64,000 nucleotides of DNA from a virus. Taxonomy: Duplodnaviria > Caudoviricetes. The DNA lies in IMG/VR virus record IMGVR_UViG_3300020037_003256, positions 32,001-96,000 of that record; one strand, given 5' to 3'. A model generated the notes under the pieces. The model had not been told where the DNA came from, did no database searches, and saw only the letters and a list, made by a program, of their open reading frames with translations. A program made the translations under genes and the position numbers. Position 1 is the stretch's first letter. The number at the start of each line of letters is the position of its first letter. Below are positions 2,684 to 52,626 of this stretch, in pieces.

Positions 2684-4000
2684 TTATCGTTTCATACGAG
2701 ATCGTGTGATGATCTCGTGGATATAGTTGCGTACCTCGGCGGCAGCTACTTTTTGCGTGGTGTTTCGCTTTTGCCCGCCCGCACTAGCTTGCGTTTCCAT
2801 GCCGCCAGGGGGGGGAGCACCCCCTGCGGCATCTCCGCCACCGGCCCCACCGCCAGCAGCGTGCTCTTGCATTGCGGCTTCAAGTTCTTCTGGCGTCACG
2901 CCCATTTCTTCCAAAGCAGAAGCTAATTGCATGACTTCGGCATCTTGTCCGCCTTCTGCTCCGCCCATGTCACCGCCACCTGCATCAGCGCCACCGCCTA
3001 AAGCTGCAAGCATTGCATGGTCGTCGCCCCCTTCTGCACCTCCCCCGTCACCTACTGGCGGCATTCCTCCGCCACCACCGGGAGGCATTCCTCCGCCCAT
3101 GCTAGGGTCTCCACCTGGGGGCATCCCTCCACCCATCGGTGGTTCAGCTTCTTCCAAAGCTCGCTTGGTAAAAGCAGTAGCGTATTGAATGAAAGCGTCA
3201 GCATCGTCCGCAGCGGTTTTAATCACTTCGGTCAAAGCAGAGTGGACCATAGTATCGACAGCTTGCTTGTTCAATCCCTTTCCGGAGATCAAACCTGCAA
3301 GTTCGTTACCTGCGTAGTAGGCAAGTTGTGGATCGATTTGGTTTTGTTGCCCGTAGCTTGCTTGCTTGGTAGCAGCAGCTGGAGCACGTAACCCTTGGGA
3401 CGTGTAAATATCGTGGATCTGGGCCAACAAGGTGTTGCCCATATTACGCATGTCGGATGCCAACTTTTCCAAGTTGTCATTTGCGTATTTGTGTCCGTCC
3501 AGGCTATCGTTTTCGGTATTGGCTGGATGGCTTGTCCCGCCCATGCCACCTTGTTCCTTGTCTTCCTTCCCTGCTTTCGCAGAGTTGGTCTCGTGGGCGG
3601 GGTCTTCCCCGGTAGGAGCAACTTTGGTGGTGGTCGAGATATGGTCGTCTTCTGCGGATCCCGGTTGGCTGACAGCCCCACCTTCTGCGGATTTAGCGAA
3701 AGACGAAAGTGCACCAAAGATACTAGCGGATTTGGTGCTAGCTTCTGGTCGCCCTTCAACGGACGCAGGACCTTGATCTGCCTTCACGTCTTTGCTGTTC
3801 TCTTCAGATCGCTTTCCTGTTTTGGCTTTATCCAAACGGTCGTCAACCCGCTTGACCGGGTGGCTAGTCTCCCCACCGATCGAGCCGGGTTCACTGAGTG
3901 GGGTCGTCCCGTCAGCTGCCTTCTCGGATGCGGTCTTGATCTGGCCCACGGACTTCACGAACTGGTCAATCGTAGCGATTGAACTCTTAGCGGTGGTCAT
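2684..4000 (-). CDS. scaffold-like/internal head protein, 438 aa
   Basis: Between protease and capsid genes; low complexity; about 10 K-x-A motifs; GGGMPPGG repeats; basic C-terminal helix. Confidence 0.55.
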   Translation of the reverse strand: MTTAKSSIATIDQFVKSVGQIKTASEKAADGTTPLSEPGSIGGETSHPVKRVDDRLDKAKTGKRSEENSKDVKADQGPASVEGRPEASTKSASIFGALSSFAKSAEGGAVSQPGSAEDDHISTTTKVAPTGEDPAHETNSAKAGKEDKEQGGMGGTSHPANTENDSLDGHKYANDNLEKLASDMRNMGNTLLAQIHDIYTSQGLRAPAAATKQASYGQQNQIDPQLAYYAGNELAGLISGKGLNKQAVDTMVHSALTEVIKTAADDADAFIQYATAFTKRALEEAEPPMGGGMPPGGDPSMGGGMPPGGGGGMPPVGDGGGAEGGDDHAMLAALGGGADAGGGDMGGAEGGQDAEVMQLASALEEMGVTPEELEAAMQEHAAGGGAGGGDAAGGAPPPGGMETQASAGGQKRNTTQKVAAAEVRNYIHEIITRSRMKR

Positions 4001-5572: not shown

Positions 5573-6847
5573 TTATTTGTCCTCAGATACGGGTTTCGAA
5601 TACTGTTCCATGATCTCTCGCATGGACTTCTGGTTAGCCTTGTCCTGCAGATTACCACGAATCAAGTATTCCAGACCAATCGGGGCACCGTAAAGCAACG
5701 CTCGCTTACCCGCAGCACTGCCGATGTTTGACGCCCCAGCATAAGTCTTACCAAGCAAGCGGTTGTGGTAGATCTTGCGGCCTGCATATTCCGGATGATT
5801 GTGATAACCCAGATCCTTTAGTTGGTGCGCCGTGCTTTCTGTCATCATGTGTTCAACAGGTTTACCCGGTTCCGTTGTAACGGTCTTAGTGGTTTCCTGA
5901 AGCGGGTTGGCTTTAGCTTTGAGTGGGTCTGCTTCCTTGGGATACGTTTGCGTCGTCTCGACCTGTTTAGGCTTAGACGTGAACACAGAAAGCAAAGGTT
6001 TACTGCTGTTAATATCCGAGCGATGGTCCCCTAATAACTTCGCAATACCGCCTTCAAATTTGCCACTCGGGCCTAATCCTGTGTGGACTGTTACAGCTGG
6101 ATCGTAAGAATGTGTGTTCTTTAGAATCGAGTCTTTCAAAGCCTCGTTAATGTCCTTGTTGCCGTGCAGACCTTTCGTAAGAAACTCCGTGCCCAGCTTA
6201 CCCGCTGCCTCTCCTGGTTTGATCCTAGCCAGGTTCTTAATAGGATTGTGTAAAGCTAAGTCAGTTATCCCCGCAGCTGTAGCTGCGGTGGTAGTCCACG
6301 GGGCGGCATCGTGCAAAGCGGAGTACCCGTCAGATACAGTGCCGCTGACACGACTCTGAATGCTTGGTGACGAAAGCTCCCGCAGCTTCGCGTGCAGGTC
6401 CGGATTGTCTTTCAACGCCCGTGGATCTACCTGCATCATCTTGCCCGTCTTCGGATCTACGAACCGCCCAGGTGTAACCGCGTCCGTACCGTTCAAACGG
6501 TTACTTGGACTCTTTAACCCAGACAGCTGATCGCGAGCCATTCCGATACCAGCACCAGCACCTGCACCAAGCATACCGCCAGCAAGCACCGAACCAAGTA
6601 CACTACGACGCTTGTTTGGGTCCTGCGCGTTGTTAAGCAAGGTGTTGGTACCAAGCGCCGCCGCACCGATACCGCCACCAATCAAAGCATGCTGGGCCAT
6701 TGGGTCTTTGATCGCTTCATGTAACGAAGACAACCAAGCCGGTGCTGCCGTTTTTTGAAAAACGCCAGCACGTGTTCCTGCCTGCAACGTAGCTAGCTTT
6801 TCGACTGCGTCGCCCAGCGTACCGTTCAAAAGAGCCTGGATATTCAT
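5573..6847 (-). CDS. putative virion protein with Gly-rich hydrophobic segments, 424 aa
   Basis: EKLA/QKTAA near N-terminus; GxxxG-type segments. Confidence 0.6.
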   Translation of the reverse strand: MNIQALLNGTLGDAVEKLATLQAGTRAGVFQKTAAPAWLSSLHEAIKDPMAQHALIGGGIGAAALGTNTLLNNAQDPNKRRSVLGSVLAGGMLGAGAGAGIGMARDQLSGLKSPSNRLNGTDAVTPGRFVDPKTGKMMQVDPRALKDNPDLHAKLRELSSPSIQSRVSGTVSDGYSALHDAAPWTTTAATAAGITDLALHNPIKNLARIKPGEAAGKLGTEFLTKGLHGNKDINEALKDSILKNTHSYDPAVTVHTGLGPSGKFEGGIAKLLGDHRSDINSSKPLLSVFTSKPKQVETTQTYPKEADPLKAKANPLQETTKTVTTEPGKPVEHMMTESTAHQLKDLGYHNHPEYAGRKIYHNRLLGKTYAGASNIGSAAGKRALLYGAPIGLEYLIRGNLQDKANQKSMREIMEQYSKPVSEDK

Positions 6848-12670: not shown

Positions 12671-14038
12671 TTAACGACCAGCGCCAGGGTTAGATTCCTG
12701 CGACTGTGTGTAGTCCCACGGTTGCGGATATGGGCGGAATTCCGAAGGCATCATAGCTGCACCAGCCGCGTACCCCGGGGACCGCGTACGTCCACCAGTT
12801 AACCACGCGCCGTACGGTTTAGCGGCACCAGCCTGGACAGGAACTTGACCAGGCTTCGCCCCAGGAGCCACTACGTGCATTCTCGCCGCATCCATGTACC
12901 TTCGGATATTCTGAGAATCAGGAGCTGCCGTAGGATCACCAGATTGTCGTGTGGCAATGTCTTGCAACTGTCTTCGAATTTGTTCCGCATCGTACGGCAA
13001 AATACTAGAAGAGTTCAGTCGCTCTTGCAACTGCTTCCGTAGATCTGCGTCGCCCGGTTGCGGCGAATTACGGCGAATAGCCCCGTCCAGCTCAGACTGC
13101 ATTGCCTGTTGTTGCGTCAACATATGTTGACGCATCGTGGATACTTGATCCCGATTATCACTCCACGGGTTCAGTCCCCAGAAATGGTAATTTAGCGGAT
13201 TATACCCGGTATTGCCGCGGAAGTTTCCGGCTTGGAGTTTTTGTTCAAGTTCTGCGTACTTCCCAGTATCCCCGGCAAGTCTTGCTTTCTCCATCTCGTC
13301 CCGAAGCGGTTTTGTCGCTGCATCGTATCTTGCATTGTTGTTGTTGTAGATATCCACACGTCGCTGATAAAGCTCTGGCTTAGGTCGATTAGCTTCTGAC
13401 GAACTGAACCATCGCAATGGATTAAAAGAAGTACCGGCTGTATTTTCAGCGTCATTGTCCAAGTGCGCCGCACCTACTGTGGCACCAAAAGGTGCAACCA
13501 CAGTTCCACCGATACGCTTCGCTGCAGACATCGCGCTATATTGATTACCGCCCACCTGCTTACCGCCTAACCACTTGAGCCCGGCACCAAGCCCCTTTAC
13601 CAGTCCAACACTGGCCGTTTTCTCCATACGCGAGATAAGCATGGTGTCAGCTGCGGCTTTTGCCAAAGTAGCAGATACCTGCGGAGCACTACCCAAGGTA
13701 ACAGGCGACTGCATATGGTCCGGCAATTTTGGTAGTGCCCTGTTAGCCAAAGCACCACCCATCCAATTTCCGTTGAAACGCCCAAGTGCCGTACCGCTGC
13801 CAATAGCCGTGGCTGCCGTAAGGCCTTTACCTAAACCACCCTTAAACTTAGCAGCGCTTTGCAACATCTTGTAAATAAGGGCAGCACCAGCCGTACCACC
13901 GACAGCCGTACCAGCCTGGCGTCCAGCAGAACGTCCACCTTCCAGCATACCTTCCGATTTGATTTGGTTTCGCATTAGCGCGTTTTGCCGTAACGCTTCT
14001 AATTTAGCCATTGAGCCAACAATATCTTCGTTAGCCAT
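12671..14038 (-). CDS. putative virion/ejection protein, Gly/Gln-rich, 455 aa
   Basis: Gly-zipper-like N-terminus; AKAAA and EKTAS motifs; AGGAGG SD. Confidence 0.6.
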   Translation of the reverse strand: MANEDIVGSMAKLEALRQNALMRNQIKSEGMLEGGRSAGRQAGTAVGGTAGAALIYKMLQSAAKFKGGLGKGLTAATAIGSGTALGRFNGNWMGGALANRALPKLPDHMQSPVTLGSAPQVSATLAKAAADTMLISRMEKTASVGLVKGLGAGLKWLGGKQVGGNQYSAMSAAKRIGGTVVAPFGATVGAAHLDNDAENTAGTSFNPLRWFSSSEANRPKPELYQRRVDIYNNNNARYDAATKPLRDEMEKARLAGDTGKYAELEQKLQAGNFRGNTGYNPLNYHFWGLNPWSDNRDQVSTMRQHMLTQQQAMQSELDGAIRRNSPQPGDADLRKQLQERLNSSSILPYDAEQIRRQLQDIATRQSGDPTAAPDSQNIRRYMDAARMHVVAPGAKPGQVPVQAGAAKPYGAWLTGGRTRSPGYAAGAAMMPSEFRPYPQPWDYTQSQESNPGAGR

Positions 14039-14104: not shown

Positions 14105-17100
14105 TTAGTAACCAGGATCAACGATTTGCCGTCGCTGTAAACGATCGAGCATGCTGGCATCTGGTTTGCCGAAGTTGAAACCGCCTATGCCTGCAGCGGG
14201 TGGCTGCGTGTCCGAGAACGTAGGCGTTAGCGGCTGAATTAGCGGCGGAGGCCCTTGGGGCATAAACGAGAAGCGAGCCGGTGTATTGTCCGGTGGTGCT
14301 GCCCGCGGTGTTTGTCTACGTTTATCAGCTGCAATAGCGTCGTTAATTTCGAACGCCAAGCTCGTATTACCGACCTTGGCTGCCCGTTCGGCTAACTGCT
14401 GCAGCTGTGTCACCCTTTGCACATTGGCCGGGGTGCCGGGCGATAACTGCAAAGACGTTAGTTCTTCCCCTAACCACTCCTTGAACGCATCTTTGTCATA
14501 AGGACTCGCCGTATTGTTCAACACTTTATCTGCAACGCCCTTGCCGTGCTGTAGACGCACGTTTTTATACGTCTGCTCAGCGTCTGTCCGTAACTGTCGT
14601 TGCGTACTGAGATACTGTGCATTTGCTTTATCTCCGCCCCAGGCCTGATTTACAAACTTGTTGGTCGAGATATGCTTGGCGTCAGCGTCCTGCACAATCT
14701 TACGGTTACGTACTAGTTTCTCCTGCTCGTCTGCGGTTAGGACTCGGCGACGTGCTGCTTGCTCCAAGTACTGTACGTACGCATGGGCATGTGCCGCTTG
14801 GTTAATATCCGTGCGTTGGGCTTGTTCTTGGTTTGCGTTATGATTCTTCCATGTGTCTTGAAGCACTACGCTAGACGCGCCAATGTTAGCCCCGGGATTG
14901 ATAACGTTGTCCAGTATATTACCGGCGTTGTCCCATATCCCTTCTCGCGGACGCATCTTGTCTTCAAACTTAGCACGCAACTCATCATCAGAAGTCAGGG
15001 CTGTCATCGCAGTCTCAACGCCGATGTTCAGCAGCGGTACTCGTTTTGCTAAGTTCAAAAGTCCCTTACCCGCACGCTTCAGTGCTTCGTCTCTCGCTTT
15101 ACGGGCAATCTCTCGCTCAACTTTGTTACGGAACAAGTCACGAGCACCGTTGTACATCGGACGTACTAACATCCGGTGCACTGCGCTACCCGTGACGGGC
15201 GAGGCCCAGGCGTGAAGAGATTTCTGCCACCACGAATTAGCTCCCTTGGCTTCTTGCAACAGTTCGTAATCCGATACGTCGCCCTCCGGTGCAACATTTG
15301 TCATCAGATGTTGCATCACGTAGTCATTAGGTACGCCCGTGGTCTGAAACTCTCTCAACTCTTGTACGGTCTTCTCCATCTCCGGAATATCCGGATTCGC
15401 AGGCTCGCTTGCCTTGAGCTGCACTATTTGTTCCTGCAGATCCGCGATTCGTTTACCTGGGTCGCCGCCAACCGTTTGCAGTATCTGCCCATTCAGCTGC
15501 TTACGCGTCTCTTCGAATTTTGGCTGCCCCGGTTCGTATCCGTTCTTCTTAAGCAGATACGCACGACGCGCGGAATCCATCATTTTCTGTTGCGCTTGCT
15601 GATCCGTAGTATTCGCACCTAATGTCGCCTTGAAAGCATCAAACTGTTTGTTGCCACTTTCCCATCCGCTCATCTTCGCAATCTGTTGAACAAGTGCATC
15701 AGGTTGCGATAAGTTGGGAACAGCAGTAGGAACTATTGGCGGCAGCGCCGGAGCCTGTGGTTTTGCCTGCATGGCATTAGGCTTCGCAGGATCGTTTTGT
15801 TGTCCAAGCAATCCGTTCCATTTCGGGACGATGGCGTCATTGTCTCCGATCAAAGAATCAGACCCGTCACCGAATTGCCGTGGAGCTCCGTTCTGCCCGT
15901 ACGTTAACGAAGCAACAGCATCGCTATCGAGCAACGAGCCGAATCTCGCGATGTCTCCAAAGTGCCCACCGAAACCCGATCCCGGGTTATTACGATCACC
16001 ACCACCCGCAACGAAATTAGCAGCCATTTCTGGGTCGTCGAACTGTGTCAGTATCCCAGACGAATTGGCTGCCCCCGTAAACGGCGTGTTGGCTTTGTAA
16101 GGTCCACGCTGCACGCTATCTGTCCATGCGTTATCCCGAACACGCCCTGGATGTATTTCACCTGGGGCTGCCGGCGTCGTAGGTGTACCTGGTACGGCTG
16201 TCGCGGTCGGTGCCTGTGGAACCGCGGGAACACTTGGCGGTGTCGGTGGTCCCGCGGCATTGGGTAAGAACGTGTAATTGTTTGCACGAGATTGGCCTGG
16301 TGCGTTGTTTGCACCGGTACTTCCTGGCATCGGGTTACGTGTAGCCGTCACAGGGGCAGCGGTAGAGCTACCAGTAGAACCAGGTGTAGTCGTATCAACC
16401 TTTGGCGCTGACGACATAGCCGCTGCTTTTATCAGGGCCAAAGCTTCTTGTTGCAGTTCGTCCGCGGATAGTTTGAACAACCCAGTAGGTTTTGGTTTAT
16501 CCTCTTTAGGTTTGATCGGTGCCGCGATAGACGGGGCCTGTGATACAGGAGACTTTGCACGAGGATCACCAAATGGCTGTCCTTCTGGTGGTGGGGCCGT
16601 ACCCTTCTCAGAAGAACGAACAGCGCCAACACGGCCAAAGTCAACAGCACGGGCTAGACCTGGTACAAAGCTGGTCCCTAATTCGTCGGATACAGCTCCG
16701 TGGTGCGTCGCATCAAGCAACGACGACTTCAACCCGGAACCGTACATACGCGTCATCCAGTCTGGATCGTACTGAAGTGAGTACATCCCGCGGATCATGT
16801 TCGACTGAAATGGTGCTGGATCTTTATGTACTGCAACAGAGTTTACGCCAAAGTGCTGCAGCTCTTTCAAAACAGACGGGCGTACTTTGGTTCCAATTGA
16901 ATAGTGCAGTACGGGCCGCTCAAGATATTTGCCAAGTGCTTTCTTCGGATCCAGTTCTTCGTGCCCTTCTCGCGGTTCGTAAAGGTGCTCCATGGTGGAG
17001 TACGGAACGACGTCGTCCGGTACGTTGTCACCGTACTCATCCGTAAGCTTTACGTGGTTAATGAGCCCACGAGCCAGTAACTCCACGTTACGCCGGTTGA

Positions 17101-18466
17101 CCTTCATACCGGCGTCTTGCATGGCCTTACGAAAGGCGTTCACGAAGTACCGTTTGCCTTCCCCAATACCTTTGTGTTCTGTAATCACAGCTGGGTTAGG
17201 AAACCCTTCTGTGATAACGTCGCCGGCCTCAACCGAATCCCCTTTCTTTACCTTCAATTCTACGCCAGCAGGTACGTAATGCCGCTGATCTCCGATCCAG
17301 ACGTAATTACCACCGGCAGGCGCTTCCTCAATCGCGGAGACGGTACCATCCTTCTCCGAATGCGTGGCTCCGCCTTTAAAAACTTTCGGTACTTGGATCA
17401 GCTGGTTGATGTAGGCGAAACCGCCAACGGCTTTTTCCTGGCCAGCGACACCACCAGAGTGTTTAGCCGAAAGCTGTCCTTGTGCCAAAGGCTCAGACAA
17501 AGCCTGTGCTGCCGTAAGCCCTACCTGTTCTCCACGACCAGGTAATGTACCTTTCTCGCGTACACCAACGTCGCGAGCGTACACACCGCCATCCGGAGAC
17601 CCGCCAATAAGCGGGCTACGCACAAGGATACGGTCGTGTCCTAGGCTTTTAATGTGCTTTAGTATTTTGGGTGTCAGGGCTGTGTTGCGTTTGTACGGCC
17701 CCACGTCTTTGGCCAATAACGATCCTTCGTTGTCCCCGTCGTCCGTATCGACAGGTAGGCCACGGTCCGGTAGGTCCCGTTCGTCATCATCCCCAACAAC
17801 CATTAAACGGTGCGAGACTTGGTTCAGCTGTTTACTAAGATACCCAGCATCTTGGGTAGCGAACTTAGTCGCCATAGTACCACGGCGAGCACCGTACATG
17901 CTCGCCCAATACTCCATTGGCTTTAACCCTTCACTGTAGCTCGACAGTACAGGTAAAGGGATTACGTCGTCACGATGGTCGGAGTACAGCATGTCCCCGC
18001 CCAGTAACGACCCCAGGTTCATCTTGTTACCACGAGAACCGGATACAACCTGCATAGCAAGCGGGTTGTTAGCCTTTACCGCTTCGTCGTAGATATCGTC
18101 GATTTGTTTCTGTTGATAGGACCCGACCGTCTTTACAATTAGCTGCTTACGTTGTTCTGGCGTGATATCGTCGCGGCTAAGGATCTGCTGCATCTTTCGC
18201 TGGATCGCTATCCGATTGCGTTTAGCTACAGCAGAAGTTCTTAAATGCTGCAGGCCAAAAGTGTACCCGCCGAATTCTGTTGCTACGGTCCGCCCGATAT
18301 CGCTCAGTTTCTTAGACACCTCAACGTACTTTTCCGGATGCTTTTGCGCAAGCTCTTGCAGCAGCTGATTCGACCCTTTCTTGTCAAGTACGCGATTATC
18401 GTCTCGCATGTCTTCGGGTAGTGCTTCGTTAACAAGCAATCGCCCCATGGTTGTCCGTAGCATCAT
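14105..18466 (-). CDS. rpoC: RNA polymerase beta' C-terminal half fused to a ~780-aa extension, 1453 aa
   Basis: TTMGR; SGSRGN; bridge helix EGLKPMEYWASMYGARRGTMATKFATQDAGYLSKQL; trigger loop GEQVGLTAAQALSEPLAQGQLSAKHSGG. Confidence 0.9.
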   Translation of the reverse strand: MMLRTTMGRLLVNEALPEDMRDDNRVLDKKGSNQLLQELAQKHPEKYVEVSKKLSDIGRTVATEFGGYTFGLQHLRTSAVAKRNRIAIQRKMQQILSRDDITPEQRKQLIVKTVGSYQQKQIDDIYDEAVKANNPLAMQVVSGSRGNKMNLGSLLGGDMLYSDHRDDVIPLPVLSSYSEGLKPMEYWASMYGARRGTMATKFATQDAGYLSKQLNQVSHRLMVVGDDDERDLPDRGLPVDTDDGDNEGSLLAKDVGPYKRNTALTPKILKHIKSLGHDRILVRSPLIGGSPDGGVYARDVGVREKGTLPGRGEQVGLTAAQALSEPLAQGQLSAKHSGGVAGQEKAVGGFAYINQLIQVPKVFKGGATHSEKDGTVSAIEEAPAGGNYVWIGDQRHYVPAGVELKVKKGDSVEAGDVITEGFPNPAVITEHKGIGEGKRYFVNAFRKAMQDAGMKVNRRNVELLARGLINHVKLTDEYGDNVPDDVVPYSTMEHLYEPREGHEELDPKKALGKYLERPVLHYSIGTKVRPSVLKELQHFGVNSVAVHKDPAPFQSNMIRGMYSLQYDPDWMTRMYGSGLKSSLLDATHHGAVSDELGTSFVPGLARAVDFGRVGAVRSSEKGTAPPPEGQPFGDPRAKSPVSQAPSIAAPIKPKEDKPKPTGLFKLSADELQQEALALIKAAAMSSAPKVDTTTPGSTGSSTAAPVTATRNPMPGSTGANNAPGQSRANNYTFLPNAAGPPTPPSVPAVPQAPTATAVPGTPTTPAAPGEIHPGRVRDNAWTDSVQRGPYKANTPFTGAANSSGILTQFDDPEMAANFVAGGGDRNNPGSGFGGHFGDIARFGSLLDSDAVASLTYGQNGAPRQFGDGSDSLIGDNDAIVPKWNGLLGQQNDPAKPNAMQAKPQAPALPPIVPTAVPNLSQPDALVQQIAKMSGWESGNKQFDAFKATLGANTTDQQAQQKMMDSARRAYLLKKNGYEPGQPKFEETRKQLNGQILQTVGGDPGKRIADLQEQIVQLKASEPANPDIPEMEKTVQELREFQTTGVPNDYVMQHLMTNVAPEGDVSDYELLQEAKGANSWWQKSLHAWASPVTGSAVHRMLVRPMYNGARDLFRNKVEREIARKARDEALKRAGKGLLNLAKRVPLLNIGVETAMTALTSDDELRAKFEDKMRPREGIWDNAGNILDNVINPGANIGASSVVLQDTWKNHNANQEQAQRTDINQAAHAHAYVQYLEQAARRRVLTADEQEKLVRNRKIVQDADAKHISTNKFVNQAWGGDKANAQYLSTQRQLRTDAEQTYKNVRLQHGKGVADKVLNNTASPYDKDAFKEWLGEELTSLQLSPGTPANVQRVTQLQQLAERAAKVGNTSLAFEINDAIAADKRRQTPRAAPPDNTPARFSFMPQGPPPLIQPLTPTFSDTQPPAAGIGGFNFGKPDASMLDRLQRRQIVDPGY

Positions 18467-20125: not shown

Positions 20126-21883
20126 TTACTCAAGGATATGCACTTCGGTGTCAGCTGAAATCTCGCCACGTGCAGAGGCTTGTATAGCGTCCGCTTTATT
20201 GCGGAACGTTCTAGCCTTTGCTTTCTTTTTCCCGTCATGCGTTTTAGTCGCATAGTATAAACCCGCAAGATACTGCTGCCCGGGCTTATGCACAGGGCTC
20301 TTAAAGTCAGACGGACTCAACAGTGAGCGACTCGGCAACAGACGATCGTAAGCTTCATTAACCGCAGCATCAGTCATCGGCACGTGAAACTGCATAGCGT
20401 CCCCGTCAAAGTCCGCGTTGAACCCGCTCACAATTAATGGGCTAACCTGCAGCACGTCACCTTTAACGAGCTTTGGCCTGAATGCCATAATCCCAAACTT
20501 GTGGAGCACAGGAGCACGGTTGATATATACCGGTCTGTTCTCCATCTCTTCCTGCAGTATGTCTCTTGCCAGCGGTGTCTTATCTTCGACACTTCGCAAA
20601 GCCGCACGCATATCCATCCCTTTTCGCCGTAGTCGTCGAACGATGGCTTTGCGGTAGACCTCGAAGGCCTGCTTTTCTGGAATACCTACTGTATCCATAT
20701 CGTAGTCCGGGTTGGGTGTGATTACAGCACGCCCAACAGAGTCTACAGTACTGGAAATTAATTTCCGCTGTACCGTACCAAATTTTGGAGAGTTTCCAAA
20801 TATGCTTTTAAGAACTCCTTTAACCCCTTTCTCCTGTAGCTTAGGATGCACAGGATCGCCAAGACCCGTGACAGCTTTGAACGCGTGGTAAACAGCTAGA
20901 CGCTCTGGACCGACACCATCGTCCCCAACCTGTTTCTGTAGATCGGTGTAGTTGTTCTTCGCGTCAAGGAGTTCCTTGTAAAGATAGTTAGGATCAGAGA
21001 TTAACGGGATACCGCTGTCGCCCATCAAACTAACTGGGCGAAATGCTGGTGGAAGCACAGGCACTTTATCCAACACCCACTCTCTTGGATGCAGATTTAA
21101 CCGCTTAGCAGACTTCAAGAAGCCCCATCGCCGCACAGCCGCATCACGCGAAGAAGCTTTCCCGGAGTAGAATTGTGCCTTAGCTTCAGCGATGGATTTA
21201 TCGATATCGATGTTGTCCAAAGCTTTCGCAATTGCCTGTGGGCCAGTACCGAAACCAGATAAAGAATGATCGCCCTGTAGGGTTGCCTCGTACTGTTTCC
21301 CGGTAAGACCCAGCAACCGACGAATTGGTTCTTCCATCACCGGGTTAGGCATTGGCTCTGGTAGCTTGATATAGCTCCACCGTTTACCGTTGTGCCCACC
21401 TGTAAGCACGTCATCAAACAAACCACCTTTAACCGGCTTTAAGTCTTTATCGAAGTGTACGGTTTCCCCTGATTTAATTTCACGGTCGCCAGCCAGTGTA
21501 TCTACGTCTTTTTTGGTCAAAGCCATCACTTGTGTGCGGTGCCCATCACGCACGACGTTGATGCCTGCAGACTTTAGTTGGTTTACAAATTTCTCGTAAA
21601 CCATAGGCACTCGCGGCGTACCTGGTGCGTGTCCCGACATAAACTGCATCCAGATATCTTCGTTCTTCTGTCCGCGAAACGCGCCAGCATCGTTCAACGT
21701 TGCCGTAGCCCCGTGAGACAATAATGCGTTCACGTCCAACAAGGATATCCGCTTAGAATTGGAAACTACGATGCCAGCGGCAAGCGTATACAAGTGCGTA
21801 TCGTCCACACAGATGTCGAACACAGGTACAGTGTGGTTCGCATCTACGGGACCTGCATACGGTGAAATAGATTTAATTTTCAC
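20126..21883 (-). CDS. rpoC: split-intein C-fragment + C-terminal end of RNAP beta + catalytic N-half of beta'
   Basis: GTG start with GAGGTGG SD; intein end ...IVVSN|S; KRISLLDVNALLSHGA (cf. beta QRFGEMEVWALEAYGA); VPVLPPAFRP; NRAPVLHK; FNADFDGDAM catalytic loop. Confidence 0.92.
   Translation of the reverse strand: MKIKSISPYAGPVDANHTVPVFDICVDDTHLYTLAAGIVVSNSKRISLLDVNALLSHGATATLNDAGAFRGQKNEDIWMQFMSGHAPGTPRVPMVYEKFVNQLKSAGINVVRDGHRTQVMALTKKDVDTLAGDREIKSGETVHFDKDLKPVKGGLFDDVLTGGHNGKRWSYIKLPEPMPNPVMEEPIRRLLGLTGKQYEATLQGDHSLSGFGTGPQAIAKALDNIDIDKSIAEAKAQFYSGKASSRDAAVRRWGFLKSAKRLNLHPREWVLDKVPVLPPAFRPVSLMGDSGIPLISDPNYLYKELLDAKNNYTDLQKQVGDDGVGPERLAVYHAFKAVTGLGDPVHPKLQEKGVKGVLKSIFGNSPKFGTVQRKLISSTVDSVGRAVITPNPDYDMDTVGIPEKQAFEVYRKAIVRRLRRKGMDMRAALRSVEDKTPLARDILQEEMENRPVYINRAPVLHKFGIMAFRPKLVKGDVLQVSPLIVSGFNADFDGDAMQFHVPMTDAAVNEAYDRLLPSRSLLSPSDFKSPVHKPGQQYLAGLYYATKTHDGKKKAKARTFRNKADAIQASARGEISADTEVHILE
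21758..21883 (-). other. split intein C-fragment (IntC, 42 aa)
   Basis: MKIKSI N-terminus; block F VFDICVDDTHLY; terminal Ser-Asn followed by Ser+1 (21755-21757). Confidence 0.88.
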
Positions 21884-22167
21884 AGTCCACCTCTGTAACG
21901 TGCACGCATACGTTCCCACCAACTGCTAAGTGCGCTCCGGGCTTTACCCGCGAACACGCTACGTGCTTGTTCGCGATACGTTTGAGGGCGTTGCGAAACT
22001 ACAGGAGGTTTGTAGTTAGCAAACCCTGTCCCTATCGCAGCCATTGGCGCTTGTAACCCGGTAGCAGCAATGCCGTTGCTAGGTTGGTCCAGCAACTCTT
22101 CGCTTGCCAACTTGAAACGTAACGCCGCAGCGTTCACCGTAAGAAAACTCATATCGTCGTGCGGCAT
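21880..22167 (-). CDS. small hypothetical protein (95 aa) between the intein halves
   Basis: GGAGGGG SD; GTGA overlap with the IntC gene; FKLAS motif; no endonuclease motif. Confidence 0.65.
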   Translation of the reverse strand: MPHDDMSFLTVNAAALRFKLASEELLDQPSNGIAATGLQAPMAAIGTGFANYKPPVVSQRPQTYREQARSVFAGKARSALSSWWERMRARYRGGL

Positions 22168-22168
22168 G

Positions 22169-25100
22169 CTACCCCTCCAGTAAATCGTCACCAGGTTTAA
22201 GTTCGGAAGCAAGGATCCTTTTATGGTTCTTCAAAACGAGCACGTGGTTTTTGGTGCAGCTGAACTTCTCCCCGTTAGCCAACTCAATCGTAATCAACTC
22301 GGAGGAAGGGACCCAGTACATAAACCAGTCCGTAACCTTACGCCGCACTCTTTCCGCAGGCTTATATCGCTTTTTAGGTATCTTCACGGAACCTACTGTC
22401 CCGTTGAACCTGTTCGCGACGATATCCTTGATCCGCACCGGCTCTGGTGCCTGTTCGTCGATATCAGTCGTGTCTGGTGAATCCATATACACCATTACTT
22501 CCGTATCGCCCGTAAAACATCCAGACTCTCCGCCTTTTGCCGGAGTCTCGTCTGAAGAATAAGAACCAGAGTCGCGACCTTGGCCTTTTGACTCAGCCGT
22601 ATGGTGTAGCTTCATCATAAAGCGATACCCGGTACCGACGCCAGGCACCTTGGCGTTCTTCTCTGGCCAGTAGACGTCTTCTGTGCTGCTCAAGCCGTGC
22701 TTCTGCAGTAACTTCTCAGACCAGTCTTCAAGGTCGGATATGTCCGTGAAGTCTGGTACCTTGACAGGCTTACCTGTTAAGGCTGCAACCTTTCCCAACG
22801 CAGACTCGATCTTCTGGCTAGGATTCGTTCGAGTGATGATACCATCCGGGCTTAACAGAACCTCGTATGGTTTTCCGTCCTTGTCATGCGGCATTTGCTT
22901 GTCCGGAATGATAGCCGCAATAACTCCTTTGTCCCCGTACCTACCGCTTAACTTATCACCAACCTCGGCTGCAGCCTCTGCCTTTACCAGCACTACGGGA
23001 CCATTCTTTCCCCAGACAACATCCGTTACGACGCCCGGGCTATGATGCTTCCACACAATCGACTCATCGGCGTAACCAGCTTGTCTTTTCTTGTGGATTT
23101 TGTTCAGCGCCCGATCGCGTTCCTTGGCTGCCAGCACAAGCGGTTGCCCGTATTCTACTTGCTCTCCGACGTTTATGATTCCACGATCGTCCATCTTGGC
23201 CAGCGTCGCCTTGTCGTAAGTACCCGCGAACAAGGAGATAAAAGCGTTCTTCCCCATCTTGTGTTTGTCCGATACTTCCAGCTCGTGCTGGTACATATGC
23301 TCGGACGTAAGGCGTTTAGCCGCACTCTCCGAGATAACCTGAGCATCTTCGAAGTTAAGGCCTTTGTACGGGAAGTATGCTACCCGCATGTTGAGTCCAA
23401 GCGCCGTGGCTCCTGTATGGTCTGTATAGTTTGACTTCGCTAGTAGCTGTCCGGGTTTGAACGTGTCCCCGGGTTTGACGGTAGGCTCTTGGTGTACGAA
23501 AGTTTTACGGTTGAACGGGTGATGTTGATACAACTCGATCTCGTCCGTGGCACCGTCTTCGTATTTGACCTGCAGCACTCCGTCCTTATAGCCCATTACG
23601 CGTCCGCCCTTATCCGCTTTAACGGCACCCATATGTTTGCCGTACTCGTCTTCGTAGGACACGTCAGGTTGTCCGGGTATCCCGCCTTGGACAAATGGAG
23701 CTTCGGCGTTCTTCACAGGAAGTGCTTGCGTGATATAGCGAGCACCCATAGACACACGCCCCGGTTTTGTGGCCGACATGAACGGTACCAAGTTAGATAA
23801 CGGACTGAACGCGGCAGAGAAGTCCGGTAATGTGTACTCCACCTCATCCCGTTTCACGTAATCCAGCTTGCCGCCACGCATAACCGGTACGCGTGGCATC
23901 GATTTCCAAAACGGGTCTTTAGCCACCTCCGGTGTCGTAATAGCCGCATCAGCTAAATCCTGCGGAGATCGCCAAACAACTTCACCTTGGTTGTTGCGTA
24001 CTTGCGTATAAATACGCCCGTCTTTTCCTTTGCGACTCGCTCGGGCCATGTAGAGATCGACGCCGACTCGGAAGGATTCCGGCGTACGAATCGGATCAAT
24101 GAAACCCATATGCGATGGCTGCACGCTTCGAGCTTCGTCCGGAATAGAATCAATCGACGGGATACCGCCCTCGCCTAAACGCGTGATCCGCGTTTGTTTG
24201 TCGAACACTTCAGCCGGGTTGATTTCCTCGAGCGCCTGTGCAAGACCACTACCGATCAATACTTGTTCGAGTTGTGGCGTCATTACGCCAGACTTCATTT
24301 TCGACAACGAGCCTGCTTTGACAATGTCACGGAACACCTGTTTCCGGATGTTCCCGTGGTCTCGCTTGATCCGTTCCGCAAACAAGTCTTCTGGCCCTAA
24401 GAACTGCTGATACGCGAGGTGGTCACGATCGTCTGGGTCTACTTCTTTACGGCTGACACGGAGCAGTTTATTTGTGGCGGCAAGAATCGCTTCCTTGGTT
24501 ACACGGTTGAACGGTTGACCAAGTGTACGTTGAGTTACTTCCGGATCTAGCTCCATATTGTTAAAGCGTTCCACCAACTTGCGAGTGGCATCCGTTTCTG
24601 AACTGCCCGCCAGATCCTTTTGGCGTACCAGCTTCTGCGCTAGCTTCTTGAGCGTAGCACCACCATCATCTTTCCCATAATTAGACTGCCACAGGTTGTC
24701 TCCCCAGGCATCTCGTATCTCTCTATCTGTGGCACCCATAGCGCGGAGTAGTGGCATTAAAGGCATTTCGGACTGACCGAATTTCACCTTAAAAATTCCC
24801 TTCTCCGGATCAATGAAGTAGCGGTGACTGACGCCCTTACCTGGCAAGATATTGAAGTGGCTTTCCAACTCGCCGTTATCTTTAACACGTGCGAACACAC
24901 CAGGGTTTAAACGTTGCTGGTGATTTACCGTGTATTCGTTTCCGCGGTGCGTGAACGTACCCATGCTGGACAGGTACGGTACGGCACCGACAATCTGATT
25001 GCGTTGTTCAATCAGCTTTCCCGTACGCTTATCGTAAAGCTCCCACGTACCTTTCATGCGACGTGCTAGTGTTTCGCCGGCCAAGATAGCCTGCTTACGC

Positions 25101-25372
25101 CGCTTACGTGTGAACCTGTCCGGATCAGCCCAGTCTACGTTTGTCAGCTTTAATGAATAATTGTCGTCTTCGATCGGCTCGACGCTCTTAGCCGCATTCA
25201 TCGTCGAGTCATAGATGAACTGCCGTGTCGTTTTGTTGTCTCCGAATTCACGCATCTCCGGTACGGCAGGCTGCACCGGTTTAACTGTTGGCGTTAAGAG
25301 TGACGGTGGTCCGGAAGGTTGAAGGAGATTGAAACTGGGCGAAACCGGTTTCTGTGGTTGAGTCGGTAGCAC
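22169..25372 (-). CDS. rpoB: RNA polymerase beta subunit ending in a split-intein N-fragment, 1067 aa
   Basis: ARSVQPSHMGFIDPIRTPES; ALGLNMRVAYFPYKGLNFEDA; GDKLSGRYGDKG; MMKLHH; then ...GGESG|CFTGDTEV. Confidence 0.93.
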   Translation of the reverse strand: MLPTQPQKPVSPSFNLLQPSGPPSLLTPTVKPVQPAVPEMREFGDNKTTRQFIYDSTMNAAKSVEPIEDDNYSLKLTNVDWADPDRFTRKRRKQAILAGETLARRMKGTWELYDKRTGKLIEQRNQIVGAVPYLSSMGTFTHRGNEYTVNHQQRLNPGVFARVKDNGELESHFNILPGKGVSHRYFIDPEKGIFKVKFGQSEMPLMPLLRAMGATDREIRDAWGDNLWQSNYGKDDGGATLKKLAQKLVRQKDLAGSSETDATRKLVERFNNMELDPEVTQRTLGQPFNRVTKEAILAATNKLLRVSRKEVDPDDRDHLAYQQFLGPEDLFAERIKRDHGNIRKQVFRDIVKAGSLSKMKSGVMTPQLEQVLIGSGLAQALEEINPAEVFDKQTRITRLGEGGIPSIDSIPDEARSVQPSHMGFIDPIRTPESFRVGVDLYMARASRKGKDGRIYTQVRNNQGEVVWRSPQDLADAAITTPEVAKDPFWKSMPRVPVMRGGKLDYVKRDEVEYTLPDFSAAFSPLSNLVPFMSATKPGRVSMGARYITQALPVKNAEAPFVQGGIPGQPDVSYEDEYGKHMGAVKADKGGRVMGYKDGVLQVKYEDGATDEIELYQHHPFNRKTFVHQEPTVKPGDTFKPGQLLAKSNYTDHTGATALGLNMRVAYFPYKGLNFEDAQVISESAAKRLTSEHMYQHELEVSDKHKMGKNAFISLFAGTYDKATLAKMDDRGIINVGEQVEYGQPLVLAAKERDRALNKIHKKRQAGYADESIVWKHHSPGVVTDVVWGKNGPVVLVKAEAAAEVGDKLSGRYGDKGVIAAIIPDKQMPHDKDGKPYEVLLSPDGIITRTNPSQKIESALGKVAALTGKPVKVPDFTDISDLEDWSEKLLQKHGLSSTEDVYWPEKNAKVPGVGTGYRFMMKLHHTAESKGQGRDSGSYSSDETPAKGGESGCFTGDTEVMVYMDSPDTTDIDEQAPEPVRIKDIVANRFNGTVGSVKIPKKRYKPAERVRRKVTDWFMYWVPSSELITIELANGEKFSCTKNHVLVLKNHKRILASELKPGDDLLEG
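22172..22519 (-). other. split intein N-fragment (IntN, 116 aa)
   Basis: Block A CFTGDTEV; block B CTKNH (TxxH); ends ASELKPGDDL then stop. Confidence 0.9.
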
Positions 25373-25383
25373 GGTTTCCTCGC

Positions 25384-26643
25384 TTAGTCGGTCTCGGTGG
25401 GTACAGCTACAGGTTCTGGCTGCGCAAAGATCTCCGTAGGTCGCTGCATGAATTGCCGGCGTTGTCGTTTCTTCAATGCAGATTCTAGTACTGCCTTGCG
25501 ACTACGCTTAGACACTTTGTCGTACACGTAGGCACCAGCGAGCAATCCGGTTAATCCAGAATATACGCCATAACCGTCAGCAACCTGGCCGGCTAAGTTT
25601 GGCAAGTCTAAAGCCTGCTTTGTAAGCACCGCGTCTGTCTGCGAACTCATGGCTTGCAGAAACTTACCGTACAGCTGATCCAACGCCTGCCCAACCTTCA
25701 CCATAGTATCGTCAGACGCTTTCTTGTTAATCAGCTCCGGATGAAGCTCGACAGGTTTGTCGTATTGTGAAATCAGAGCATCGTGGAATTGCGATCGCGC
25801 GTCGGTAAGTTCCTGCTCCATACGCTTACGCCGCTGTCGATCGATAAGCTTGTCCATGCCTTTCCACCCAAGCGCCAATCCACCAATAGTGCTAAGAGCA
25901 GATGCGGCACCGTACCAAGGAATACCGCTTTTAGAACTTGCGTCGTCACCAAAGGCGAACGACCCAGACTTCTCCGGCGTCGCGGGAAATGGCATTGGAA
26001 GATAAGCAGGACCAGTACGAGTTTTCTTCGCTCGATTCGCTCGAAGATGTTGCACGGCTCCAAGTATTGCACGACCAGCTACGCCAATGCCTAGACCAGT
26101 GAGCCCAAAACGTTTAACGTCGCCCAAAGCGTCCGATTGCAGTTGCGTAGACGCCATGTTCTGAACAGCGCCAGAAAAAGCATCTAAGGACGGATCAGCT
26201 GCGTGTTTTTCTTCTAGATCTCTACCAAGCAGCTTGTCTGCGCCTCGCCATCCGGCATAACCACCAAGACCGCCGCCTAGAAGCGTTGCCCCAAGAACAG
26301 CACCAGGACTCGCGCCGAGACCTGCAGCCGCTGTCGAACCGGCGGATATACCCGCGAGTATACCACCGCCCGTTAAAGCCCCACGAGCAGCACCACGTAA
26401 TGTGCCAGCAATTGGTTGCTTCTTGGCCGTACCGTAACCGGCACCAGCTACGGCACCAACTGGCGCACCAAGCATGGCACCACCAATTCCGTTAACCAAT
26501 GGCGTACCGATTAGCGTATTTACAGGGTGCTCTCGGATCAGCTGTTGCAGTTTTTGTTGTGCGTCTTCGTACCCTTCCGCTGCTCTTTTTTCTTTCTCAG
26601 CCTTGACCCGCGCCAAAATTGCTAATGAGGTTTTGCTGTCCAT
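25384..26643 (-). CDS. putative virion membrane-interacting protein, 419 aa
   Basis: Several Gly-rich hydrophobic segments separated by EKRAA, EKHAA, KKAS, TKQA. Confidence 0.65.
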   Translation of the reverse strand: MDSKTSLAILARVKAEKEKRAAEGYEDAQQKLQQLIREHPVNTLIGTPLVNGIGGAMLGAPVGAVAGAGYGTAKKQPIAGTLRGAARGALTGGGILAGISAGSTAAAGLGASPGAVLGATLLGGGLGGYAGWRGADKLLGRDLEEKHAADPSLDAFSGAVQNMASTQLQSDALGDVKRFGLTGLGIGVAGRAILGAVQHLRANRAKKTRTGPAYLPMPFPATPEKSGSFAFGDDASSKSGIPWYGAASALSTIGGLALGWKGMDKLIDRQRRKRMEQELTDARSQFHDALISQYDKPVELHPELINKKASDDTMVKVGQALDQLYGKFLQAMSSQTDAVLTKQALDLPNLAGQVADGYGVYSGLTGLLAGAYVYDKVSKRSRKAVLESALKKRQRRQFMQRPTEIFAQPEPVAVPTETD

Positions 26644-27906: not shown

Positions 27907-29064
27907 CTACCGTCCAAACAACTTTGGCACCACAGCGCCTAGTACGCCTAACACGGCACCGGTCGTACCGAAAGAAGAATTCCGAAATGGAGTACCAATT
28001 ATCGTGTTGATTGCCGCACCCGCGAGGTAGCCTTTGGTGTAGTCGCCAGCAACGTTTGCTGCGAGTTGTCCTAGTTGATTTCCGGTAACCCAGCCTGGTT
28101 TGCTCCGCGGATCGGGTAGCTGCTGTGCCGCGTACATACCGGCCATAGTTGTAGCCGCTAGATTTGGCGGAGCACCTGTGTCCCACAACGTGCGACCCAG
28201 TCGATCGATGTTCACGTCTGTTGGAAGACTTCCCAAATGTTCTGGTACCGTACCAAAAGTATCTGCAACCTTCTCAATAGCCGCGAGATACCGTTTACCT
28301 AGTTGGATACCTTCTAGGTCCTGACTAAACTTCACGCGAGGTAATCTGGTCTGATGAAGTGTGTGCCCAACGTCTTCCAGAATCTTTTGTGGCTTATCCT
28401 CCAAAGACGCGTGCGGAAATTGCGTAGCGTTGTTGCCGTCCACGGACGTCGGATAGTTAATAGCCTCACTACCGGCAGGAGGCGACAACAATGAAGGATC
28501 GTTAAAGTTCCTATGGTCCACCAAGTTGGTGGCTCCCCACATTAAGCCAGGAGCTACACCTAACGCTCCGCCCAGAAGCATACCGGTACGCCCCAACTTC
28601 TTGCCGTAGCCCTCTGGCATAAACTGTCCAATTAGGTGCCCAGCACCCCACCCGACACCAGCACCCAATAATCCGCTCGTGAGCATGGCAGCAACAGGAG
28701 ACGGGTTGTTCGGCACACCGTTAGGGTATTGTCCCGGAAAGAAGTTAAGCAACTCGCCCGCACGGCGTAGCGTGGGTGAATAAGCCACTTTTACCCACGC
28801 ACCATCCGGATCTGCGAGTTCCTGATAGCTAAGAAAAAGCGGTTCTGTTTTGGTTACGTTCGCGACTGCTTTCTTGACAAACTTCGCATCAGAATCCGCA
28901 ACCAAAGGTGCGAATATGCCGATGCGAAGTGTTTCGGGATGTACGTAATAACCGACATGTGATCCAGTAATCGCGTCTGCGGCTGACTTTCGAAGGTTAA
29001 ATCCTAGGTCAGCAACGCGAGAGACCCACAAATCCACGGTTTCCGGGATGTTGGCCCACTGCAT
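27907..29064 (-). CDS. putative virion protein with hydrophobic Gly-rich helices, 385 aa
   Basis: GGAGG SD; RKSAA, VKVA, EKVA motifs; first gene of the structural block. Confidence 0.65.
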   Translation of the reverse strand: MQWANIPETVDLWVSRVADLGFNLRKSAADAITGSHVGYYVHPETLRIGIFAPLVADSDAKFVKKAVANVTKTEPLFLSYQELADPDGAWVKVAYSPTLRRAGELLNFFPGQYPNGVPNNPSPVAAMLTSGLLGAGVGWGAGHLIGQFMPEGYGKKLGRTGMLLGGALGVAPGLMWGATNLVDHRNFNDPSLLSPPAGSEAINYPTSVDGNNATQFPHASLEDKPQKILEDVGHTLHQTRLPRVKFSQDLEGIQLGKRYLAAIEKVADTFGTVPEHLGSLPTDVNIDRLGRTLWDTGAPPNLAATTMAGMYAAQQLPDPRSKPGWVTGNQLGQLAANVAGDYTKGYLAGAAINTIIGTPFRNSSFGTTGAVLGVLGAVVPKLFGR

Positions 29065-45731: not shown

Positions 45732-46838
45732 TTAAACAAAAGTGCTTTCAAAACTACACTTCTCGCACCACTGGTAGATCGGGTTACGTAACCCGTCTGG
45801 ACAGTGTATCACGGCTTTGGAGCAGCCTCGCATATACAAAGACTGCAAAGCTGCAAACCACGCAGACATATACAGCTCTCCAAACGTATCAGCTCGTGAT
45901 AAGACTGGATAGTACAACGCGAGCTTCGGAGGTAGCTGCAATGCACTGGGCTTAGGCTTCATTACCTGCCGAAGGTACGCTGCGGCATTACCTTGTGGTC
46001 CGTCCGTGGACGTCACGCAGTAGTCTGCAGGTATCGTATCGATGACCTTTGCCAACCGCTCAGGTAAATCAAACCAAGCCGCCTTACACGGTACAGGGGT
46101 TCGGCTGTTTACCAGATACAAAACGTCAGCGTCCGAGACACAGCGGGACGGGTCACATGTTAGATATGCGTGCTTTGGCGGCTTGGTTTTCAACAAAGCT
46201 CGCAGGTTTTCTAGCGATGCCCGCTCTAAGGCTCGCTCTGCTTTCCAGGCAGCCACTACAGGGTCCTGTCGGCTAAACTTGTGATGCGTAATAACAGGAT
46301 CCTTCACTGCCTGTTTATCGCCGGATAACACGTTGTACTTTGCCGGCAACGATCCCAGCTTAAAGTCGTAACACCCAGGCACTCCATTGATGATCTTCAT
46401 CGTCTCTATAAAAGCGCCCTGGTCACACGTCTCATAACGGTGCCCGTATGTCTCTGTCTCGTACTTCCACTCGGATAGAAAAGTACGCGTAGTAGAATTG
46501 TTCTTTAAAAGCATAACGCCGATATTGTAATTCTCCTTAACATCCGCAGTATTTCCGCGGTGTCGGACTAACACGTCGCACGCCCCTAACAACCTTTCAA
46601 TACCCTGTAGCTTTCCAACTAGCTCGCAATCTGCGTCCACGTACAGGATATTGTCGTTGCTGTACGCACGCATTATGTCGCACAGGATGCCAGGTTTCTC
46701 TCGCACATTACGACACCAAGAACCTCGATCCGGCTGAGAGATAACAACGATCTCTATGCCCTGCGATTTCGCGGCAAGCTTCAAAGCTTTTGCCGAGTCG
46801 GCGTAGGCACCACCGGTCTCGTAACAACAAATCATCAT
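45732..46838 (-). CDS. nucleotide-diphospho-sugar transferase (GT-A fold), 368 aa
   Basis: KPGI...YVDAD; NIGV; DQGAF; LPAKYN. Confidence 0.75.
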   Translation of the reverse strand: MMICCYETGGAYADSAKALKLAAKSQGIEIVVISQPDRGSWCRNVREKPGILCDIMRAYSNDNILYVDADCELVGKLQGIERLLGACDVLVRHRGNTADVKENYNIGVMLLKNNSTTRTFLSEWKYETETYGHRYETCDQGAFIETMKIINGVPGCYDFKLGSLPAKYNVLSGDKQAVKDPVITHHKFSRQDPVVAAWKAERALERASLENLRALLKTKPPKHAYLTCDPSRCVSDADVLYLVNSRTPVPCKAAWFDLPERLAKVIDTIPADYCVTSTDGPQGNAAAYLRQVMKPKPSALQLPPKLALYYPVLSRADTFGELYMSAWFAALQSLYMRGCSKAVIHCPDGLRNPIYQWCEKCSFESTFV

Positions 46839-46863
46839 AGTTATTCACCCTTCCGGAAACCTG

Positions 46864-48669: not shown

Positions 48670-49253
48670 TAAGACGTAGCCTCTTTGTATTTCTTCAAAG
48701 CAATCGTTCCACAATCAGTCACCGATCCGAAGCTAACCAATCCCTCGTGGAAGGGTTGTCGCTTTGCTTCTTCGATCGTGTCGTGTGCGTGTGCCCAGAG
48801 ATCACCCCTGGCAACGGTGTACTTGGTGACCTTACGCACGAGCTCTATTATCTTGCCGTAGACGAACTCGTTGACATTGTGCTTGGGGTCTGTCGTTTCT
48901 TCTTGCTGCCACCCAATCCAGGTAGCGGTGGCAGCGTAATCAGCATGTTCAACATTCGGCGAGCGGACGTCGAATACGTACATACCGTACATTGAGCCAA
49001 ACGTTTCACGGTTAATATAGTTGACAGCAACCTCTATCTTATACGGGTCAAACCTGTTGGTGGCTGTTACGATATTCCGGACGTCTACCCCAAGCGTTGT
49101 GCCATTCTCCGTCAAGTACTCGTGCACAGCCAACTCACCTAACGGTGCTGCGGCCAACGCACACGCCTTCCACGTACTCTGAGCGTAGGCCATCAACTCT
49201 TCTGTACTTGCAAACATTGCAGCGAGTCTTGCCGTTGTATCTTCCGTAGCCAT
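48669..49253 (-). CDS. hypothetical protein, 194 aa
   Basis: Coupled to asnB. Confidence 0.65.
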   Translation of the reverse strand: MATEDTTARLAAMFASTEELMAYAQSTWKACALAAAPLGELAVHEYLTENGTTLGVDVRNIVTATNRFDPYKIEVAVNYINRETFGSMYGMYVFDVRSPNVEHADYAATATWIGWQQEETTDPKHNVNEFVYGKIIELVRKVTKYTVARGDLWAHAHDTIEEAKRQPFHEGLVSFGSVTDCGTIALKKYKEATS

Positions 49254-49264
49254 TTAGCCGTCCT

Positions 49265-49471
49265 TTATTTCTTGTTCCCGCATTTAACGCACGCGTACAC
49301 CGAAAACACCGGCTCTTTGGTGTACGCGTCGCCAAATAGTGTTCGCGTAACTTTGTTACTTACCTCTGTGTCGTATTGCATAGGCGTCCCGCATTTCGGA
49401 CACGGTCGGCCCCTGGCAACCCAGTCCTGGTCCGGTCTCTCGTAAAGATGCTCGTCGTCTTCCATCGCCAT
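49265..49471 (-). CDS. zinc-ribbon protein, 68 aa
   Basis: CPKC...CVKC. Confidence 0.65.
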   Translation of the reverse strand: MAMEDDEHLYERPDQDWVARGRPCPKCGTPMQYDTEVSNKVTRTLFGDAYTKEPVFSVYACVKCGNKK

Positions 49472-50262: not shown

Positions 50263-50269
50263 ATCAACC

Positions 50270-51424: not shown

Positions 51425-51426
51425 GC

Positions 51427-52617: not shown

Positions 52618-52626
52618 ATCGCTCTC

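Follow-up and report, generated by a model that had tools for sequence, protein, structure and literature searches.

A naturally split intein in the multi-subunit RNA polymerase of a tailed phage, with a non-nuclease gene between its halves

Introduction

Natural split inteins are known mostly from enzymes of DNA metabolism and from terminases. Here we describe one that interrupts a multi-subunit RNA polymerase. It is encoded at positions 20,126 to 25,372, on the minus strand, of the 64,000-nucleotide (nt) stretch of DNA that we analysed (the window; positions 32,001 to 96,000 of IMGVR_UViG_3300020037_003256, a tailed-phage record of 219 kb with an estimated completeness of 98%). The closest described systems are the fractured genes of Dassa et al. 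(2009; PMC2677866), among them gp41-1, gp41-8, NrdJ-1 and IMPDH-1, in which, as here, the halves of the intein are kept in their original order and locus. Both sets include one locus type without a middle gene (gp41-7 there, the related loci L002/L003 here), and the model of Dassa et al. includes a return to the contiguous gene (PMC2677866); at the phage site all the allele states are seen. Fractured genes are found in enzymes of DNA synthesis and repair and in a terminase, the term 'RNA polymerase' being absent from PMC2677866, and their middle gene encodes a GIY-YIG or Vsr-like homing endonuclease, whereas the phage has an RNA polymerase as host and, between the halves, a cysteine-free protein that is not a nuclease and no free-standing homing endonuclease. 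Apart from its RNA polymerase host and its non-endonuclease middle gene, the locus matches the fractured gene as defined by Dassa et al.; the host protein, the middle gene and the completeness of the allele series are new.

The cyanobacterial DnaE split inteins (Npu, Ssp) share with the phage intein a long N-terminal half (IntN), a short C-terminal half (IntC) and a first-residue cysteine (Cys1). The residue that follows the intein (+1) is cysteine in DnaE and serine here. The phage intein differs further in that its host is an RNA polymerase, its halves are adjacent and the split form has not become fixed in the lineage.

Inteins have been described in the second-largest subunit of RNA polymerase in eukaryotes and in eukaryotic viruses (Goodwin et al. 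2006, PMC1635734), where, as here, they occupy conserved sites of the beta homologue close to its active cleft; all of those are contiguous, and the word 'split' is absent from that paper. Salmonella phage Arash (gp206, of 1525 amino acids (aa), and gp216) and Vibrio phages D69, D148 and D181 have the same two-chain polymerase layout as our phage. Arash gp206 is 30% identical over the whole C-terminal flank of the intein (the C-extein), with a colinear junction and a near absence of cysteine, and it has no intein at the site; the Arash paper (PMC10585845) does not mention inteins. The mReC phages (Weinheimer and Aylward 2020, PMC7481178), for which neither an intein nor a split is reported, are likewise large tailed phages from metagenomes and have a multi-subunit RNA polymerase resembling that of cells; the mReC markers PF07068 (capsid) and PF03237 (terminase) had no match in our genome under a loose first-look filter in which the capsid control was blank in every genome. 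Term searches of the mReC paper, the Arash paper and two jumbo-phage reviews returned no split intein in these polymerases, and in the literature searched, split inteins occur together with RNA polymerase only in engineered T7 polymerase. No report of a natural split intein in a multi-subunit RNA polymerase was found in this literature, which is incomplete and does not prove absence.

Results

Two genes of the phage polymerase carry the halves of a class 1 intein

The large chain of the phage polymerase, comprising beta and the front half of beta', is very probably made in two pieces that are ligated by protein trans-splicing. The first piece is encoded by the beta gene (25372-22169, 1067 aa), which consists of the N-extein and IntN. 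The N-extein (22520..25372, 951 aa) matches PF00562 (E 1.7e-50) and the rpoB models, carries beta double-psi-barrel motifs at residues 810 and 921, contains no cysteine and extends to the equivalent of G1266 of Escherichia coli beta, to which it was aligned via the intein-less relative P0145. IntN (22169..22519, 116 aa and a TAG stop at 22171-22169) starts with Cys1, which is residue 952 of the beta open reading frame (ORF; nt 22519), and has Thr89 and His92 in block B. The second piece is encoded by a gene of 585 aa (21883-20126) that starts with GTG at 21883, just downstream of a GAGGT. Its IntC (21758..21883, 42 aa) has Asp23 in block F, His30 and the terminal pair Ser41-Asn42, with the Asn codon at 21760-21758. 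The C-extein (20126..21757, 543 aa) opens with Ser+1 at 21757, continues through the last ~70 residues of beta into the N-terminal half of beta', matches PF00623 and the rpoC models, carries the catalytic motif NADFDGD at 20419-20399 and is also free of cysteine. Between the two lies a spacer gene of 95 aa (21880..22167), in another frame than the halves, which begins 1 nt past the IntN stop and whose TGA overlaps the GTG of IntC. These coordinates and the lengths of the exteins and intein halves all agree with a prediction made earlier from the sequence alone (the original prediction), which had omitted the 95-aa ORF (22167-21880).

Each half is recognised as an intein by itself. IntN scores 26.2 bits against TIGR01445 (curated NCBIfam cut-off 24.5) and IntC scores 22.0 bits against TIGR01443 (cut-off 15.6); with the halves in separate genes that have their own stop or start, this confirms the predicted naturally split intein. 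Protein searches returned 40 IntN-bearing proteins (IntN of 95-130 aa) and 79 IntC-bearing proteins (IntC of 37-46 aa), the latter all with Asn followed by Ser-Lys-Arg; P0095 is an 80th. C1, F2, D64, F66, T89, H92 and L113 are invariant in 41/41 IntN, at a median pairwise identity of 38%, as are D23 and N42 in 79/79 IntC. The penultimate residue is Ser in place of His in 73/79 IntC; the original prediction had likened this to Npu DnaE, and the aligned Npu sequence does end in Ser-Asn. The predicted Ser nucleophile at +1 is present in 79/79 IntC proteins. The Cys1 nucleophile, the block B TxxH, the block F Asp, the terminal Asn and Ser+1 are those of a class 1 intein, and removal of the intein restores conserved host sequence. 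A search of 185,579 prokaryotic genomes with the IntC pattern, limited to what that pattern can recognise, found no match.

In a structural model of the IntN-IntC complex the interaction prediction score from aligned errors (ipSAE) is 0.75, whereas the best control scored 0.00; the contacts were reproduced between runs to at least 90%, and the predicted local distance difference test (pLDDT) of the partners is at least 76. The mark that this model reaches is attained by 51/78 solved complexes and by 2/108 mismatched pairs, and the pass may reflect likeness to split inteins with solved structures. A single-sequence AlphaFold prediction for a contiguous allele (P0123) was of low confidence (pLDDT 32). 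Charge complementarity of the Npu DnaE type is weak in the phage pair (net 0 and -2).

In the mechanism that we propose, the three genes would most likely be co-translated, and IntN and IntC would fold together as a Hint domain. An acyl shift at Cys1, helped by Thr89/His92, would form the thioester; the N-extein would be transferred to Ser+1 with the help of Asp23; and cyclisation of Asn42 would release a cysteine-free chain of 1494 aa like that of the intein-less relatives. As far as sequence can tell, the locus is real, probably functional and chemically ordinary.

The intein interrupts an existing beta-beta' fusion

Alignment of an intein-less relative with E. coli beta places the junction at G1266/G1267, with the match running on to residue 1337. 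The first 70 or so residues of the C-extein belong to beta (E. coli 1267-1337), and only then does beta' follow, which by this alignment puts the intein inside beta and not at the beta/beta' boundary. We take this segment of beta to be conserved and to lie near the active cleft. The nearest of the known intein sites, Cre RPB2-a, probably lies about ten residues further downstream and is probably not allelic.

The original prediction had the intein joining beta to beta'. In most relatives the beta-beta'N fusion is a single ORF, which makes fusion the usual state of this family. Because the junction lies inside beta and the fusion is one ORF both in relatives and in Arash gp206, the intein is seen to interrupt a fusion rather than to create one, and splicing would merely restore it. 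The prediction did anticipate the product: splicing would restore the conserved stretch of beta and yield a chain about 1494 aa long, and the intein-less relative L005 has the identical junction while the chain of P0145 is 1489 aa long. The family's beta' is itself split, into beta'N and beta'C, with no intein, and after the predicted splicing the phage would have the Arash-type arrangement of beta fused to beta'N plus a separate beta'C. No motif of this type other than NADFDGD occurs in ORFs of at least 250 aa in the genome; the phage therefore appears to have just one polymerase of this kind. The motif varies in the family, with Asn or Gly first and Ala or Met second. In a few members Asn, Ser or Leu replaces its Phe, and in P0064 the Phe or an Asp is apparently missing, unless that protein is atypical by coverage alone (96%).

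The break between the halves is real

IntN and IntC are in one frame, with six in-frame stops between them (four TAG, two TAA). Contigs from other sequencing runs bridge both edges of the break: X4 spans the IntN stop (21968-22433) with 23 substitutions and no gaps, X2 spans the IntC start (21714-21928) and is identical, and no indels or joints are listed for these contigs across the two edges. A separately assembled strain (L128) has the identical three-gene order, with synonymous to non-synonymous differences of 7:3 in IntN, 10:4 in the spacer, 8:2 in IntC and 33:2 in the extein. The contiguous cis-intein ORF that would have contradicted the original prediction was not seen in these assemblies; the break is real and not an assembly error. 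Among relatives IntN stops at the same place using TGA, TAA or TAG, mostly TGA, each IntC opens with its own start codon at a common register, and the gaps between the halves measure 451, 823 and 2336 nt in other frames. Because homologues begin at that register, the GTG at 21883 was preferred as the IntC start to a TTG upstream at 21922. The spacer stop overlaps the IntC start in most split loci, and promoter and terminator matches between the halves are at chance level; since these overlaps recur and such matches do not exceed chance, the genes are most likely co-expressed and translationally coupled.

Split, contiguous and empty alleles occur at the same site

Of the 80 related viral loci compared, about 75 have no interruption at precisely this bond and four are split there. 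The 159 intein-less alleles include some whose junction is identical. Contiguous inteins are found at this position in P0123 (161 aa), P0167 (138 aa; best matches in PDB are DnaE inteins, E 2e-9 to 3e-8), P0171 (384 aa, with a LAGLIDADG_2 domain, E 1e-16) and L085 (408 aa). In L002/L003 the intein is split with merely 31 nt between the genes and no spacer. No member split at this site but lacking the intein halves was seen in the loci and proteins compared, and models built from the intein family found no further member in the phage genome. The +1 residue is Ala in 64/159 intein-less alleles (L120 is among the cases in the family alignment) and in Arash gp206; alleles with Ala at +1 cannot support splicing and may be immune to this intein. 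We did not use Ser+1 as evidence of selection: it is found in 82/82 alleles with the intein versus 95/159 without it overall, but also in 48/51 empty alleles of the subclade described below (p 0.056).

The end of beta is a hot spot for inteins in this polymerase family. Another contiguous intein lies about 24 residues upstream of the split site in L002 (7400-7549), L039, P0131 and P0166; L002 and P0131 have both. In residues 1-220 of P0095 a second, contiguous mini-intein follows about 17 residues past the split site, and two adjacent inteins must splice. The IntC proteins P0019, P0023, P0082 and P0115 measure 900-960 aa, and an additional intein in their beta' part is probable.

With few exceptions, the split loci read have a gene between IntN and IntC. 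Its products range from 76 to 637 aa, with a conserved N-terminal motif and an amphipathic C-terminal motif around a widely varying middle. The spacer of our phage is cysteine-free, lacks a nuclease motif and has no match in Pfam, NCBIfam or PHROG; an ESM Atlas search gave no useful match (scores under 0.8). No nuclease match was found in any spacer of the split loci read, and 11 spacers of relatives contain a single Cys in 1893 residues. The comparison with L128 indicates purifying selection. Among the loci fetched, spacer profiles match split loci only; they recovered a left-out split locus and found nothing in three complete intein-less genomes, with a sensitivity that is limited for such a short, divergent protein. 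Three of three further homologues found by spacer sequence alone sit between an IntN and an IntC.

A host tree built from 241 C-exteins places every split allele in a single subclade, which also holds 51 empty and 2 contiguous alleles but not the nuclease-bearing P0171. A single clade of split alleles is rejected by an approximately unbiased (AU) test on the host tree, restricted to 38 close rows (p-AU 8e-6, at least 11 state changes), and alleles of all three kinds (split, empty and contiguous) are intermingled at 80-84% identity. As the split alleles are not one clade, the cassette must have undergone repeated loss, re-fusion or regain. The distances among inteins are correlated with those among their hosts (rho 0.34-0.40, 0/500 permutations). 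P0123, which has no spacer nearby, is nested among split forms on both intein and host trees and for that reason looks like a re-fusion of a split intein. That the spacer is shared points to one origin of the split state, and one split followed by descent with repeated loss is the simplest reading; exchange among close relatives fits too.

We infer the following history. A LAGLIDADG intein would have homed into the Ser site of beta, and in one subclade the nuclease would have given way to a small phage gene that had a stop and a start of its own, so that the intein was split where an endonuclease usually sits. Since then the cassette would have passed mostly by descent, often being lost, re-fused or exchanged, as a tolerated insertion and not a switch.

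Weighing the alternatives

The break could in principle be mended before or during translation, by an intron, amber read-through or ribosome hopping, to give a cis intein, or be an assembly error. In favour of such a repair, the two halves share a frame in this genome, IntN ends in TAG, the sole tRNA of the genome has a CUA anticodon, and the RNA of the gap folds somewhat better than shuffled sequences (z -2.5). Set against this are the independent assemblies, the varied gaps of the relatives and the conserved start of IntC. An intron was rejected since an Rfam search of the gap gave no match, and read-through by the CUA tRNA is ruled out by the two in-frame TAA stops and by the TGA that most relatives use; this reading is largely refuted, and we give it next to no weight. 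The intein halves might instead be only a non-covalent clasp holding together a polymerase that works unspliced, as the tails do in the fragmented Aeh1 NrdA (PMC3045599). Phage polymerases tolerate many natural splits (PMC7824862), including that of this family's own beta', and binding of the halves is what the structural model predicts. However, the residues needed only for chemistry (Cys1, Thr89, His92, Asp23 and Asn42) do not vary across 41 IntN and 79 IntC sequences that are otherwise divergent, a folded intein would occupy a conserved segment of beta near the active cleft, and no member was seen to do without the halves where it is split. We regard a clasp without splicing as very unlikely. 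Trans-splicing stays the preferred reading of the chemistry, and several observations count against it or against the history drawn above. IntN departs from the family consensus at the well-conserved positions N98/H99 (D/G) and S105 (G) and carries a long insertion, which together could slow splicing; the re-fusion of P0123 is not established by an AU test on the short intein alignment (p 0.12); and neither trees nor counts of changes separate gain from loss.

The original prediction also suggested that trans-splicing gates activation of the polymerase in time or place, for example after packaging or injection. No Cys occurs in the 2947 aa of the exteins and the second chain, against an expectation of about 40, every Cys residue of these polymerase genes being one that would depart with the intein, and Arash gp206 is the most abundant protein in purified particles, for which its authors also allow co-purification (PMC10585845); a virion-borne enzyme is plausible here. 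The cysteine-free trait is, however, common to the whole polymerase family, empty alleles included, and the overlapping genes and chance-level promoters and terminators point to co-expression. Since neighbours that are 80-83% identical do without the intein, we consider gating improbable, and this part of the prediction was not supported. A further possibility, tentative but clearly less remote than those above, is that a useful or selfish spacer accounts for the retention or spread of the cassette. In that case the split intein would be a safe landing pad for a cargo gene, probably for a virion protein, living in an essential polymerase gene, and the cassette, mobile or selected, would move among close relatives without an endonuclease of its own, by recombination or by co-conversion with neighbouring homing inteins, with reversible split, re-fused and empty states. 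The purifying selection on the spacer, its conserved ends and variable middle, its restriction to split loci and the interleaving of allele states are consistent with this, as is the presence of a second intein in beta in 11/40 IntN proteins versus 8/70 intein-less ones; co-conversion with the homing intein 24 residues upstream found no support at that site, where an intein occurs in only 1/40 split and 1/70 empty alleles. On the other hand, L002/L003 retain the split intein without a spacer, the spacer has no nuclease, homology searches are weak for a protein of this kind, and repeated loss accounts for the tree equally well. Such a cassette complements trans-splicing and does not replace it.

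Implications

With nuclease-bearing, mini, split (with and without spacer) and empty alleles side by side, the 2009 model for the origin and reversion of split inteins becomes testable on one locus; a non-nuclease middle gene is unexpected under that model. Should the cargo reading be true, it would offer a route to split inteins besides endonuclease invasion and natural evidence that splitting is reversible. The chemistry is ordinary and a regulatory role unlikely. The dozens of divergent natural pairs, with their Ser+1 junction and cysteine-free flanks, are worth screening for fast or orthogonal ligation, and judging by these sequence features their value as protein-ligation tools is plausible.

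The second polymerase chain and the surrounding genes

Three short genes separate the C-extein gene from the gene for the C-terminal half of beta' (14105..18466, minus strand, 1453 aa), the second polymerase chain. It matches PF04998 and positions 547-1050 of TIGR02386, and consists of about 480 aa of beta' and a long low-complexity tail, with neither intein nor cysteine. The tail (14105-17000, minus strand) comprises about 970 low-complexity, non-polymerase residues after a Lys-x-Ala-rich linker. The length of this protein is 1125 to 1862 aa in relatives and about 606 aa in Arash (gp216). Many genes around the polymerase (521-29064, minus strand) are cysteine-free as well (521-1462, 2684-4000, 5573-6847, 12671-14038, 25384-26643 and 27907-29064); several are rich in Lys-x-Ala motifs and possibly encode virion-core proteins with protease processing sites.

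The CUA tRNA, which is amber-suppressor-like and the only tRNA of the 219-kb genome, lies at 57121-57193 (minus strand). TAG serves as an ordinary stop in many genes of this genome; a few TAG-ended ORFs extend in frame by 290-550 codons (e.g. 52629, 87275 and 103648, in window numbering), and these may be chance in-frame neighbours. Further along the window, a cluster at 45732-53529 (minus strand) contains genes for an asparagine-synthase-like amidotransferase (46864-48669) and a DegT/DnrJ aminotransferase (51427-52617), which suggests biosynthesis of a sugar or surface modification.

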